DNA of 52,937 bases from Bacteroidales bacterium (GTDB taxonomy: Bacteria > Bacteroidota > Bacteroidia > Bacteroidales > UBA7960): NCBI GenBank assembly GCA_046483935.1, contig JAWOCF010000228.1:1-52937 (forward strand). Reading direction: 5' to 3'. Made by a program: the position numbers and the translations under genes. The notes under the pieces are model-generated. The model made no database searches. It saw only the letters and a program-made list of their open reading frames with translations, and was not told where the DNA came from. Shown piece by piece: positions 19,651 to 50,952 of this stretch; within the stretch, counting starts at the first letter, position 1; each line of letters starts with the position of its first letter.

Positions 19651-19785
19651 CCTGATCAAAGCCATATCAGAACTGATTCAAAAACGGATCAAAAACGTAC
19701 TTCAAACGTACTTCAGACGTAAAATTACGTCTGAACTACGTCTGAACTACGTCTGAACTACGTTTGAACTCCGAATTTGATCAGG
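19651..19785. repeat. Mirrored 11-bp tandem repeat array (unit TACGTCTGAAC) forming a long imperfect palindrome
   Basis: Left CTTCAAACGTA, CTTCAGACGTA; centre about 19723; right TACGTCTGAAC x3 plus TACGTTTGAAC; outer CCTGATCAAA/TTTGATCAGG. Confidence 0.9.
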
Positions 19786-19806
19786 CCTTATTACAGAGAA
19801 GAAATG

Positions 19807-19836
19807 TGTAGAGACGCAATGCATTGCGCCTCTACA
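19807..19836. repeat. GTAG-type REP-like palindrome
   Basis: TGTAGAGACGCAATGCATTGCGCCTCTACA, a 30-bp palindrome with one mismatch, containing the GTAG tetranucleotide. Confidence 0.7.
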
Positions 19837-19840
19837 GTGT

Positions 19841-42665: not shown

Positions 42666-42677
42666 TGAGGGTTGAGA

Positions 42678-42867
42678 GGTTGAGGGGTTGAGAAGAAGAT
42701 GAGGGGGAGACTGGGAGACTTGGAGACTTGGAGACTAGGAGACTAGGAGAGGCCAACAGCCAATAGCCAACAGCCTGATGGAGGAGCACGAGATCGCCAC
42801 ACGTATTTTAAGGGCCTGTTTCAGCATGTATTTTCAAATAGCATCATCCCTCAGACTCCTGCCGATC
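42678..42867 (+). repeat. About 190-bp composite repeat, copy 1 (42-bp purine-rich head, GGAGACTN 8-mers, AGCCAAN 7-mers, conserved tail)
   Basis: First 42 bp are identical to 43689-43730; tail CGCCACACG.ATTTTAAGGGCCT.TTTCAGCA...CATCCCTCAG...CCTGCCGATC is shared with copy 2. Confidence 0.9.
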
Positions 42868-42905: not shown

Positions 42906-43289
42906 CTAAATCTTATGAGGGTTCAGGTATTTCAGCCCATCGACAGAATGAAAATCTCTATCATTACTGGAAATCAGGGTATACCCAAAAGCAAGGGCAG
43001 TCGCAGCAATGATGGCATCAGGAATTTTCACCTTCCTGTGCCGGCGGATGTCAACACAAAATGAAATTACTTCAGGAGTAATATCTATTATCACACTATC
43101 GGCAATAAACTCTCTGATCCCCCTTTCCTTTTGAGGCTGGGTTTTCCAGCACAGAAGCTCAATCTGAGAAATTACCGAAAGGTTAGGCACATCATCAATT
43201 ACGGAATCCATAAACTGCAATCCCCTCTCGGGAAGGGAGGCGGAAAAATAATCAGACACCACATTGGAATCTATTAAATACCGTTCCAT
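42906..43289 (-). CDS. PIN-domain toxin (VapC family)
   Basis: YLIDSNVV, SVISQIELL, PDAIIAATAL, LISSNDRDF acidic PIN motifs. Confidence 0.92.
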   Translation of the reverse strand: MERYLIDSNVVSDYFSASLPERGLQFMDSVIDDVPNLSVISQIELLCWKTQPQKERGIREFIADSVIIDITPEVISFCVDIRRHRKVKIPDAIIAATALAFGYTLISSNDRDFHSVDGLKYLNPHKI

Positions 43290-43489
43290 TCGGTTCGCAT
43301 TTGATGGATATGGTCATTCAGCTGTTGTCCTTCCTCTTTGCTGATAAAGCCCTTATACTTTTCAGACAACCTGGGGTGAACAGGACCAGTGGTTTCTTTC
43401 AGGACCTTGATAAGGTGCAGTTTTTCCAATTCGCGGATCAACCTGCCTGCCTTCTGATTGGTCAATTGGATAAGCATGGTATTTTCCAT
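43274..43489 (-). CDS. Putative cognate antitoxin of the PIN toxin
   Basis: 71 aa, directly upstream of and overlapping the toxin; C-terminal KYKG.IS...QMRTEW as seen in Bacteroidota PIN partners. Confidence 0.75.
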   Translation of the reverse strand: MENTMLIQLTNQKAGRLIRELEKLHLIKVLKETTGPVHPRLSEKYKGFISKEEGQQLNDHIHQMRTEWNGI

Positions 43490-43688: not shown

Positions 43689-43884
43689 GGTTGAGGGGTT
43701 GAGAAGAAGATGAGGGGGAGACTGGGAGACCTGGAGACTTGGAGACCCGGAGACTGAGAGACTTGGAGAGGCCAAAAGCCAACAGCCAAAAGCCAATAGC
43801 CTGATTGAGGCCGCCACACGCATTTTAAGGGCCTTTTTCAGCACCCATTTTTAAGTGACCCCATCCCTCAGCACCCTGCCGATC
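43689..43884 (+). repeat. About 196-bp composite repeat, copy 2 (direct repeat of 42678-42867)
   Basis: Same head and tail; 6 versus 5 octamers and 4 versus 3 heptamers. Confidence 0.9.
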
Positions 43885-43988
43885 GGAGGAAAAAAGGTGC
43901 TCTGAAGGCCGGAAAAGGCTGAAAAAATACACACCTTTCAGTCCCTCACCAAAGGCAATAAACCGCCACTCCACTCCCCTTATCCAAA

Positions 43989-44059
43989 TCTCCCAGTCTC
44001 CAAGTCTCCAAGTCTCCCCCTCTCAGTCTCCCCCTCATCTTCTTCTCAACCCCTCAACC
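43989..44059 (-). repeat. Inverted partial copy of the repeat head plus octamers
   Basis: 44024-44059 is the exact reverse complement of GGTTGAGGGGTTGAGAAGAAGATGAGGGGGAGACTG (36 bp); AGTCTCC units at 43995-44017. Confidence 0.9.
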
Positions 44060-44061
44060 AT

Positions 44062-48737: not shown

Positions 48738-49385
48738 ATGGAAAAAATCAACGTAGTCATTGTTGACGATCATAAGCTGGTCACTGATTGTATTGGATTA
48801 TTCCTGAGGAGCTCCCCCGACATGGTAGTTTCGGGCGTGGCTCATAGTGGCACCGAGGCTTTATCGCTTCTGGAAGCTTTTGAGCCCCATGTAATGCTGA
48901 TCGACATCAGCATGCCCGACATGACAGGGATTGAAGCCACCAAACTGGTCAAGCAGAAGTATCCGGATGTAAAGATCCTGATCCTGTCAATGCATTCTGA
49001 TTATGATAATATCTCCGATGCCATTGATGCCGGTGCCGACGGTTACGTGCCCAAGGATGTGGCTTCCGAAGAGCTCATTGAAGCCATCAAGGCCATCTAC
49101 CAGGGCAAAAATTTCTTTCACACCTCCATCTCCGATGAGATCGTGAAGAATTATTCCACCAAACGGCGCACCCCCTCTGCGGTGCTGCCGCAGCTCACCA
49201 AAAGGGAGCTGGAAGTGCTTAAGCTGTTTACCGAAGGCTTTAATAACAATGAAATTGCCGACCGGTTGTTTCTCAGTGTGCGCACCATCGAATCGCACAA
49301 AAACCATATCCTTCAGAAAACAAATATGAAGAACTCAGTGGAGCTGATCAAGTTCGCCATCAAGAACAAGATCATTGATCTATAG
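48738..49385 (+). CDS. NarL/LuxR-family response regulator (no adjacent kinase)
   Basis: VDDH, IDISMP, SMH, GYVPK; LTKRELEVL...IADRLFLSVRTIESH. Confidence 0.93.
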   Translation: MEKINVVIVDDHKLVTDCIGLFLRSSPDMVVSGVAHSGTEALSLLEAFEPHVMLIDISMPDMTGIEATKLVKQKYPDVKILILSMHSDYDNISDAIDAGADGYVPKDVASEELIEAIKAIYQGKNFFHTSISDEIVKNYSTKRRTPSAVLPQLTKRELEVLKLFTEGFNNNEIADRLFLSVRTIESHKNHILQKTNMKNSVELIKFAIKNKIIDL

Positions 49386-49413
49386 AAACTTCATCTGTCT
49401 GAAACATTACCAG

Positions 49414-49444
49414 AAGCCGGCCCCATCAGCCGGCTTTTGTTTTT
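49414..49444 (+). terminator. Intrinsic terminator after the response regulator
   Basis: AAGCCGGC-cccatca-GCCGGCTT-TTGTTTTT. Confidence 0.8.
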
Positions 49445-49570
49445 CATCATCGCTGGAGCAATATTCTGCAGAGTACCTGATCATTATGATTGAGTGTTTT
49501 TCTGCCTCCCCCAATGCAATTCACTCAAAAAGAGCCAGCCCTTCCGGGATTCAACACCCTTTCAGGGCCC

Positions 49571-49688
49571 CATCAAACTCGCATTAAACTCGCATTAAAT
49601 TCGCACTAAATTCGCACTAAATTCGCGAATTCGCGAATTTAGTGCGAATTTGGTGCGAATTTGGTGTGAGTTTGATGTGAGTTTAACC
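49571..49688. repeat. Mirrored 11-bp tandem repeat array (5 + 5 units around CGAATTCG)
   Basis: CATCAAACTCG CATTAAACTCG CATTAAATTCG CACTAAATTCG CACTAAATTCG | CGAATTCG | CGAATTTAGTG CGAATTTGGTG CGAATTTGGTG TGAGTTTGATG TGAGTTTAACC. Confidence 0.93.
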
Positions 49689-49764
49689 GGGTGCTGATAT
49701 GCCTCTGGCAAAAAGTGGAAATACTCCGGAGTGGCCAAAAATGACCGCAGGATCCTTGGGGCAG

Positions 49765-50952
49765 TCATGGCCTGTTGATCATCAGACTTGTGCGTATCGG
49801 AGGGGGTTGAGCCAGCACTTCCGAAATGATCCTGTTTCTGAAAACACTCAGGAACTTTTCCTGCTCCTCACTGTGGGGCCGGTGGGCCGACTCCTCAAAC
49901 CAGATGAGCGTCTTTCCAAGGGGGGCCTCCAGGGCATCGAAATAAGAGGCTGCCAGGGAGGCCGAGACAATCATGTCATGGCGGCCCAACAGGAAGTATA
50001 CGGGCACCTCAAGGCGTGGCACCCGCTTCTTCAGGTTGATTCCTTTCATTTCTTTCCACAGGCTGCGGGCCGAGAAAAAGGGAAACAGCACCATGTTAAA
50101 ACGATCCTGGAAGCTGTAAAACGGCGAGCTAAGGGTTTGTTGCAATTCCTGCAGATCAAAATAGGGACGCTCCTGCGACTGGTCTCTCACCACACCCCCG
50201 TAGCGATAGACCCACTTTCTGAGGGTGAGGGCGTCCTGCAGGGTATAACGGCTGGCTACGGTATCAATCCGGGCCAGTTGCCTGAGGGCACGACGGTTAT
50301 TGTTCTGCAGGGCTTTTTGCAATACAAATTCATAATTGAGCCGTTCATTCTGAATGGGATTCACGCTCTGTCCGGTAGAAATATAGGCATGGACCAGCCC
50401 GGGATAGCGGGCTGCGAACAATGTTCCGATGTTGGTTCCCCAGGAGTGGCCCCAGATAAAAACCTTCTGCTGCCCGGTAAGTTCTTTCAGGTAATCAACC
50501 AGCTGACGGGTATCTTCCACAAACTGATCGAGGGTCATAGACCGGGGAGAAAGAGAACGGTTAAAGGAGCGGCCTGTGCCGCGTTGCTCCCAGTACACCA
50601 TGATAAAATCTTCTTCCAGGCGTTTCATGATTTCCTCGTTGGGCTCGAAGGGAAACAACGGAAAGCCAGGCCCCCCATGAAGAAAAATCATCACAGGGTT
50701 CCGGGCATTATCTCCACGCACCATCACCGCCTGGGAAATCCCTCCCAAAGGAATCTGCGAATAACTGTTGATGCCTGGGCCTGAATCTTCTACAGTCCGA
50801 TAGATCTGACACGACCCAAACATCATAAAAAAAACTGCAAGAATAATTCCAGGGAATAGGCGGTTGGTTGTTTTTAAACTGATCATAAAAAGTAATCCAT
50901 TCTTTATTAAGTAATATTTCATGCCTGCACTAAGAAGAACAACATCGAACAT
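49765..50952 (-). CDS. Alpha/beta hydrolase (proline iminopeptidase-like), probably exported or a lipoprotein; start uncertain
   Basis: FLHGGPG, EQRGTG, GHSWG, GRHD, SAHRPH; hydrophobic stretch ending FGSC. Confidence 0.85.
   Translation of the reverse strand: MFDVVLLSAGMKYYLIKNGLLFMISLKTTNRLFPGIILAVFFMMFGSCQIYRTVEDSGPGINSYSQIPLGGISQAVMVRGDNARNPVMIFLHGGPGFPLFPFEPNEEIMKRLEEDFIMVYWEQRGTGRSFNRSLSPRSMTLDQFVEDTRQLVDYLKELTGQQKVFIWGHSWGTNIGTLFAARYPGLVHAYISTGQSVNPIQNERLNYEFVLQKALQNNNRRALRQLARIDTVASRYTLQDALTLRKWVYRYGGVVRDQSQERPYFDLQELQQTLSSPFYSFQDRFNMVLFPFFSARSLWKEMKGINLKKRVPRLEVPVYFLLGRHDMIVSASLAASYFDALEAPLGKTLIWFEESAHRPHSEEQEKFLSVFRNRIISEVLAQPPPIRTSLMINRP

Follow-up and report, generated by a model that had tools for sequence, protein, structure and literature searches.

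A mirrored array of 11-bp units in a Bacteroidales genome and the dispersed palindromic family to which it belongs

The array at 49571-49688 and its setting

The window considered here is a 52,937-nucleotide stretch of a Bacteroidales bacterium (contig JAWOCF010000228.1 of assembly GCA_046483935.1), and it constitutes contig C279 of a 2,497,798-bp assembly of 287 contigs that is 79.5% complete (genome G000 below). Between two convergent genes, one for a response regulator and one for an alpha/beta hydrolase, lies a palindromic element at 49571-49688 that consists of five 11-bp units, an 8-bp centre and five inverted units, with the coordinates and units that an earlier note on this DNA had claimed. 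Elements of the same kind are dispersed through the genome, and the window holds a second one. The features concerned are as follows.

49540..49570, no strand: left outer segment; degenerate terminal units with the outward reading GATGGGGCCCTGA..TTGAATC..GGAAGGG, fitting the family outer consensus
49571..49625, no strand: left arm, in which an 11-bp unit (spacer of 4 nt and core heptamer AAAYTCG) occurs five times
49626..49633, no strand: dyad centre of 8 bp, CGAATTCG; with its neighbours it makes CGCGAATTCGCG at 49624-49635
49634..49688, no strand: right arm, in which the 11-bp unit (YGARTTT and spacer) occurs five times in inverted form
49689..49715, no strand: right outer segment; decayed terminal unit, CCGGGTGCTGAT...
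48738..49385, + strand: response regulator (Response_reg plus GerE/LuxR, Pfam), the upstream neighbour
49411-49439: the regulator's own terminator-like hairpin and T-run (terminator scan)
49765..50952, - strand: alpha/beta hydrolase, the downstream convergent neighbour (Pfam; list of open reading frames)
19693..19770, no strand: second family member, class B, core AAACGTA; retains the class-A outermost unit and terminal segment (CCGAATTTGATCAGGCC)

Read in order, the left units (49571-49625) are CATCAAACTCG, CATTAAACTCG, CATTAAATTCG and two copies of CACTAAATTCG, and a period of 11 was called on both arms by Tandem Repeats Finder (TRF). A repeat search placed the inverted repeat at 49562-49629 / 49630-49697, with 68-nt arms that are 84% complementary and meet at zero gap. 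Counted from the dyad, mismatched pairs occur at positions 23, 34, 35, 38, 45 and 49, all six of them G-T on the + strand; no other type of mismatch is found inside the first 55 pairs, and A-C and transversion mismatches start at pair 56 (the first A-C at pairs 56 and 58). The statement that the five mismatches of the inner four unit pairs are all T-G or G-T was thus borne out, with a sixth G-T at a further pair. The six sit in three unit registers only (23/34/45, 38/49 and 35) and therefore amount to about three independent events, not six. Folding of both strands also agreed with the claim that a + strand copy can pair without a true mismatch: the + strand RNA fold has a 53-bp stem without interruption at -99.1 kcal/mol (z -16.4, equalled by 0 of 200 shuffles), and the - strand fold, in which A-C bulges are present, reaches -83.5 kcal/mol, a difference of 15.6 kcal/mol in favour of the + strand. 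Folding with DNA parameters gave -56.7 (+ strand) versus -47.2 (- strand). With z-scores from -12 to -16 over the two strands, the hairpin structure of this copy is far above chance expectation.

Sequencing runs of two separate studies, X1 (possibly the source sample) and X3, have Logan contigs that reach from unique flanking sequence into each arm (X1, 49326-49612 and 49644-50400; X3, 49345-49583 and 49655-49900); among the four runs compared, no single Logan contig bridges the complete palindrome. No joint that skips the element, and no empty-site form, was seen in these four runs, which as contig data are not evidence of absence. Contigs of the sole RNA run compared (X9) cover just 48973-49123, within the regulator gene.

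On the downstream side, the hydrolase stop codon lies 68 bp from the right end of the palindrome (49697). Relatives of the hydrolase have at most 58% identity in the nearest species genomes, and none was found in a metagenome protein scan. Two open reading frames (ORFs) that overlap the array (49375-49587 and 49595-49768) are not credible genes, nor is a 361-aa ORF antisense to the hydrolase, which had no Pfam match on scanning.

A dispersed family and its turnover

A TRF scan of the whole genome returned 697 rows, with period 11 in 159 and period 22 in 40; the rows of period 11, 22 or 33 merge to 103 loci. Removal of loci of <40 bp, and of palindromes with arms of <30 nt or scores of <18, left at least 50 mirrored period-11 elements, a lower bound because several contigs (C42, C94, C111 and C229) end inside arrays. 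Elements span ~120-170 bp, the entire element being an inverted repeat, and 47 of the 50 lie outside long ORFs. The 11-bp period excludes a reading frame, and the element is therefore non-coding.

More than half of these elements (28/50) form class A, to which the 49571-49688 copy belongs. Read outward from the dyad, the class-A unit is RRTSYGARTTT, in which columns 3, 6, 7, 9, 10 and 11 are near-invariant, columns 1, 2, 5 and 8 switch purine for purine or pyrimidine for pyrimidine, and column 4 is C or G. The genome has the 22-nt centre AAATTCG-CGAATTCG-CGAATTT at 15 loci, and a centre of the ...GGTCATGACC... type at 7. The Dickerson-Drew dodecamer is indeed present at 49624-49635, as the earlier note had remarked; its description there as a coincidence does not hold, since the centre recurs at these 15 loci. 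Class B has the core AAACGTA and class C the core AACCAAT, intermediates occur, and in chimeras on C286, C31 and C84 class-B units are flanked by a class-A outermost unit on one side and a class-A centre on the other. Within class B the spacers differ between the two arms and both orientations are found, as expected of copies from one or more asymmetric master elements. Bacteroidetes promoter motifs, compared with the units by eye, were rejected as misfitting in spacing.

Arm length is sharply bounded. A core-chain scan yielded 99 arms, which make up 34 compact mirrored pairs, exactly 5+5 in 11 cases, and 31 arms left single, whose partner has a variant core or lies at a contig end. From the first to the fifth level from the dyad the share of intact cores in class A is 0.87, 0.89, 0.85, 0.80 and 0.76, and at the sixth it is 0.09. 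Outside the arrays, an alignment of 55 half-elements gave the outer consensus RATMRGGCCNTGA followed by weak conservation over ~25 nt, and the terminal units, one or two in number, are degenerate (RATACGG / RATMRGGCC). No isolated operator-like single dyads were found outside the elements in this genome, the one regular-expression match being another element, on C84.

Comparisons between units support the earlier proposal that the arrays act as tandem repeats turning over in place, with integrity greatest near the dyad. Identity is 0.848 between adjacent units within an arm, 0.815 between the two arms at the same level, 0.777 and 0.752 when one arm is shifted by one unit, and 0.748 between arms from different elements; units are therefore homogenised within an arm, with a moderate element-specific match from arm to arm. 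A partner-shuffling test gave 0.793 for own arms versus 0.738 (P = 2e-4), an effect residing mainly in the spacer columns (0.697 versus 0.594). In several elements (C14, C196, C244 and C236), the spacers of the two arms do not pair.

With respect to genes, 39 elements have ORFs on both sides, of which 17 are convergent, 9 divergent and 13 tandem; convergent spacers make up 306 of 1,784 (17%) in the background, so that the elements are enriched there (binomial P = 1e-4, with genes called by a longest-ORF heuristic).

The family also occurs in other genomes. An exact 29-nt degenerate pattern matched 41 loci in the species-genome collection, all in metagenome-assembled genomes (MAGs) titled Mariniphaga sp., uncultured Prolixibacteraceae bacterium, Bacteroidetes bacterium OH_CBB_133 or uncultured bacterium, and a three-unit pattern with free spacers had 160, 55, 17, 10 and 1 matches in the carriers G041-G045 (reversed control, 0). 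Elements of the carrier MAGs have centres of type CGCGAAATCGCG or CGCGATTTTGCG and two or three near-perfect units per side, beyond which the outer units decay yet stay periodic (intact-core share by level in G042: 0.98, 0.94, 0.81, 0.33, 0.15, 0). The period is exactly 11 bp in every carrier, and whole elements of this build are embedded in contigs as long as 778 kb. Here too convergent spacers are preferred, with 17 of the 36 elements of G041 and G042 convergent and 1 divergent (17% background, P = 3e-5). Among the nearest genomes the family was found in 0 of 40, of which 24 are of the same taxonomic family, and in an even order-wide sample 3 of 400 other genomes had matches, 1-2 each. A blastn search of the element against phage and plasmid collections gave no match.

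Evidence on gain and loss comes from a metagenome collection, in which a four-unit pattern matched at least 118 stretches and 80 loci were examined as DNA. About 21 of the 80 come from contigs of one set, OBJA01, and share the five-level build and a terminal AATACGG... unit; their flanks align to G000 at 64-87% nucleotide identity with gene order conserved. For 13 OBJA01 elements both flanks fall on one G000 contig, and the orthologous gap is filled in 2 and empty in 11 (for example, 505 bp in OBJA01 versus 24 bp in G000, 357 versus 60 bp, and 576 versus 78 bp). The reverse case is seen on C175, where a 439-bp spacer carries an element in G000 and the corresponding spacer of L085 is ~75 bp long with a terminator hairpin only. 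The two filled pairs are L105 with 19693-19770 of the window, and L111 with C225 40297-40408. At the latter, five left units and the centre align in register, one arm is decayed in the relative and the remaining spacer is unalignable; at the former, the relative has class-A units and G000 has class-B units within class-A termini. At these two shared sites the element could have been retained while its interior turned over, or insertion could have recurred in a spacer that is favoured. Two further pairs, L003/L030 and L019/L024, were rejected as cross-species orthologues, being ~99.5% identical throughout and therefore uninformative on conservation; the 1.5-kb contig L099, which carries an array at either end and no convincing ORF, is likewise uninformative.

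Several other repeats were noticed. Element-bearing spacers of OBJA01 contigs L081, L088 and L102 also hold several copies of the palindrome GGACCCTTAGGGTYC, with GC-rich flanks, which is absent from the orthologous G000 spacers. A GTAG-tagged REP-like palindrome, GTAGAGACGCAATGCATTGCG(Y)CTCTAC, has three copies in G000 (window 19806-19840, C262 ~3978 and C106 ~3477); it is an element separate from the 11-bp family, and two of the three copies adjoin 11-bp arrays. G000 is unusually rich in short-period arrays beyond period 11, with 128 TRF rows of period 8 at 99 merged loci (AGCAGATT-type 49, GGAGACTT-type 19) and 39 rows of period 7; AGCAGATT-type runs adjoin some 11-bp elements, as in the flanks of those on C188 and C244. 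In the window itself, a composite repeat of period-8 (GGGAGACT) and period-7 (GCCAAMA) tandem arrays has direct copies at 42666-42790 and 43690-43810 and an inverted copy at 43975-44060. The direct copies bracket a PIN-domain ORF (42906-43289, - strand) and an upstream 71-aa ORF (43274-43489, - strand) without a Pfam match, which together look like a toxin-antitoxin pair. Palindromes at the contig ends of C98, C149, C276 and C270, with 43-129-nt arms of ordinary-looking sequence, are unrelated to the family and are probably fold-back assembly artefacts.

Spread of the family and its relation to known systems

We consider the 49571-49688 element to be probably a copy of an interspersed, gained-and-lost and non-coding palindromic family that resembles MITEs (miniature inverted-repeat transposable elements) and REPINs and carries an unusual internal array of one unit per helical turn. 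Spread would occur in the manner of a MITE or REPIN, through a trans-acting enzyme or a host process; this putative process would recognise the heptamer core, shown once per helical turn on both sides of the dyad, and arrays would afterwards turn over locally through slippage.

Several observations weigh against this assignment. No transposase or autonomous copy was found in association with the family, and the degenerate ends do not allow a target-site duplication to be defined; conservation tails off 13-28 nt past the arrays, and filled and empty pairs are too diverged for the junctions to be placed. The filled and empty sites, compared without an outgroup, leave insertion versus deletion unpolarised. 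Different genera share the core heptamer and the 11-bp period, which would also fit a host protein-binding site, and the elements kept at two orthologous sites amid unalignable spacer could point to long-term maintenance or function instead of selfish turnover. Own arms match better than others do, so that some pairing or information transfer from arm to arm exists. A link to a REP-associated tyrosine transposase (RAYT) was tried and rejected: the single Y1 transposase gene (PF01797, C10:789-1124) found in the 79.5%-complete genome is flanked by another repeat. Around this IS200/RAYT-like gene (C10:400-1500), GC-rich GGGGCGGGGTCATTAGCCCAGGGTGATAACCCTGGG-like repeats on both sides, without 11-bp arrays, look like its own REP-type partner. 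As for cargo, none lies between arms among the 99 arms of G000, and all examined G041 and G042 copies are compact.

Comparison with described repeats places the family near, and outside, the established groups. REP and REPIN sequences, which RAYTs mobilise (PMC3116915, PMC3733652), share with it a high copy number, an extragenic and non-coding nature, a long imperfect hairpin, location near gene ends and a patchy, genome-specific distribution. A REPIN is two inverted 20-40-bp REPs, whereas the present family consists of mirrored tandem 11-bp units, and the GTAG/CGTC tag of REPINs is absent from its consensus. A cognate RAYT is flanked by the same repeats in REPIN systems; here the only Y1 gene has other flanks. 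Membership of the REPINs is not supported.

Bacterial MITEs, including a minisatellite-bearing MITE of Porphyromonas gingivalis (PMC4596501), are likewise small and non-coding, with inverted ends and presence or absence between relatives, and the P. gingivalis element shares a Bacteroidota host and an internal tandem repeat. That MITE has a one-way minisatellite between terminal repeats, whereas in the 11-bp family the repeats are themselves the inverted arms and are mirrored. Neither a target-site duplication nor a parent insertion sequence was found for the 11-bp family, and the case for MITE membership is incomplete. Drosophila Foldback (FB) elements have long inverted arms of short tandem repeats; they belong to eukaryotes, measure kilobases and in some copies include genes. 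The likeness in arms of short tandem repeats implies no relation. No description of the 11-bp mirrored family was found in the open-access literature searched, where the nearest work beyond that on REP/REPIN and the P. gingivalis MITE was a study of heptamer repeats in Beggiatoaceae.

A further parallel is parC of plasmid R1, whose iterons, two sets of five 11-bp repeats, are bound by a ribbon-helix-helix protein. Both systems have an 11-bp unit, a five-plus-five arrangement and one site per helical turn, whereas the present family is mirrored, not direct, and is dispersed over dozens of chromosomal copies; an adjacent gene for a binding protein, typical of iterons, is not seen at 49571-49688, where the neighbours are the response regulator and the hydrolase. 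Such a parallel brings into view an alternative in which the element is a host protein-binding platform, operator- or centromere-like, with a mirrored heptamer at each helical turn on which a small protein polymerises in a putative nucleoid or transcription-boundary role. The near-invariance of six unit columns beside spacers that vary within and between genomes would suit this, as would the exact 11-bp period in all carriers, the sharp five-unit limit and conserved terminal unit in two related genomes, the persistence of an element at two orthologous sites where the rest of the spacer cannot be aligned, and the avoidance of divergent, promoter-containing spacers in G041 and G042 (1/36). We nonetheless hold this rival, though a live one, unlikely: within one genome the core drifts (AAATTCG, AAACGTA, AACCAAT and intermediates) in a way that a single protein would not tolerate, isolated single dyad sites are missing outside the elements, 11 of the 13 sites are unshared with the OBJA01 relative, the nearest 40 genomes lack the family, and the analysis brought up no candidate protein.

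Mirrored period-11 arrays whose cores are related or CGAATTT-like were also seen on unrelated marine and soil contigs (L112, L129, L142, L147, L089/L120 and L130/L145; arms of up to 186 nt on L142), and their occurrence suggests a broader class. A wider and distinctly doubtful proposal is that mirrored short-period arrays form a widespread, undescribed class of mobile or self-renewing bacterial palindromes with a unit set by the helix turn, in which a dyad-centred machine might read or cut the stem turn by turn and rebuild the arms in 11-bp steps. This machine might be a dedicated recombinase or transposase, or an end-processing nuclease of the Mre11/Rad50 type; the E. coli nuclease of that type (SbcCD) cuts cruciform stems at ~10-bp intervals (PMC4787754). 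The gene sbcD (TIGR00619) was found in G041-G044, four other carriers with shorter intact arms; it was detected neither in G000, which has the longest intact arms and in which, at 79.5% completeness, absence is not proof, nor in 13 of 15 genomes of the same family. As one genome against four, this relation between sbcD absence and arm length is only a lead. If the proposal were true, the GC-skew-linked asymmetry of mismatches described below would be a footprint of hairpin extrusion during replication.

Strand asymmetry and meaning of the family

The G-U-compatible asymmetry of the 49571-49688 copy was compared with the arm mismatches of the whole family. Across the 50 elements, + strand totals are 152 G-T versus 178 A-C, and heterogeneity between elements is marginal (χ2 = 65.5, df 48, P = 0.047; P = 0.18 in the best 18 elements with transition mismatches, score >=40). 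Variable columns are mostly R or Y, so that arm discordances at these columns are G-T or A-C by construction, and the mismatches of the 49571-49688 copy are transitions only because unit variation is mostly purine for purine or pyrimidine for pyrimidine; transversion mismatches occur elsewhere in the family. Under the MITE/REPIN-like account, the asymmetry would be a by-product of this polymorphism at a few unit columns.

The earlier note had offered strand-biased change in an extruded structure as one explanation, and this idea found a signal in G000 that other carriers did not repeat. The difference between G-T and A-C counts on the + strand correlates negatively with contig GC skew (Spearman rho -0.47, P = 6e-4, n = 50), more strongly on contigs of >=10 kb (-0.53) and >=15 kb (-0.61), and within class A (-0.39) as well as outside it (-0.54), with pooled counts of 64/112 versus 88/66 (Fisher P = 1.7e-4) and no correlation between mismatch type and a gene-orientation index. 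The contig of the window, with negative skew and G-T mismatches, is in line with the trend. The correlation was not replicated in 22 elements from metagenomes, 21 from OBJA01 (rho +0.34, P = 0.12, with 5-kb flanks), in G042 (n = 29, 20-kb flanks; rho +0.11, P = 0.58) or in G041 (n = 9; rho +0.21), and because replication failed in these three other carriers we keep it as unconfirmed. Its sign is opposite to a simple leading-strand C-to-T bias and would be consistent with stable hairpins being repaired, or selected against, on the strand that replication exposes. An asymmetry at the DNA level, in which hairpins extrude on one template strand, G-T is repaired or A-C favoured there, and the opposite strand keeps the stable G-T form, would account for the G000 trend; given the failed replications, a skew test that was one of several exploratory tests, and short-contig skew as a weak proxy for replication strand, we think it improbable.

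Selection on a strand-specific hairpin had been the other explanation; read as RNA, the + strand transcript would form a long G-U-tolerant hairpin selected as a small RNA, as a substrate of RNase III, as a terminator or for stabilising mRNA. The uninterrupted 53-bp + stem and its advantage in energy over the - strand, the location of elements near gene 3′ ends and the co-variation of the arms of one element would all be expected of it. Against these, the family-wide totals show no excess of G-T, the sense strand of the 13 elements between co-oriented genes has 50 G-U versus 48 A-C, and the strand difference in minimum free energy (+ minus -) over 49 elements averages +1.4 kcal/mol (sd 10.4) with balanced signs; 8 of the 49 differ by >=15, in either direction, and the 49571-49688 copy, at -17.7 in this comparison, lies in the tail but not alone. 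Totals, sense-strand counts and energy signs therefore leave selection for a transcribed-strand RNA hairpin unsupported, and no tie to transcription sense was seen. Members with arm spacers that do not pair (C14, C196, C244 and class B) also argue against it, as does the position of the 49571-49688 copy downstream of the regulator's own terminator and without a T-run of its own. Rfam gave 0 matches at the gathering threshold across the whole window, and below threshold miRNA-precursor hairpin models only. We accordingly judge such an RNA role very improbable.

That the palindrome is an assembly artefact, collapsed or chimeric from short reads, might be suspected from the lack of a Logan contig spanning it, the contigs that end inside arrays and the few artefact-like contig-end palindromes unrelated to the family (C98, C149 and C276), but has next to no likelihood in view of the two runs whose contigs reach into each arm from unique flanking sequence, the intact elements of like build within long contigs of other MAGs, and 50 G000 copies with individual unit patterns.

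Interspersed hairpin repeats such as REP, REPIN and MITE sequences shape genome structure, transcript ends and assembly quality, and to our knowledge the well-studied families are almost all from Proteobacteria and Firmicutes. The present family has a distinct design, arms of tandem units at the helical period with a conserved heptamer, in environmental Bacteroidota. Its elements break short-read assemblies, as contigs ending inside arrays attest, and they can be mistaken for structured RNAs. With gain and loss measurable between related genomes, the family offers a tractable case for what mobilises such elements, for how long palindromes are tolerated and for hairpin extrusion in vivo.

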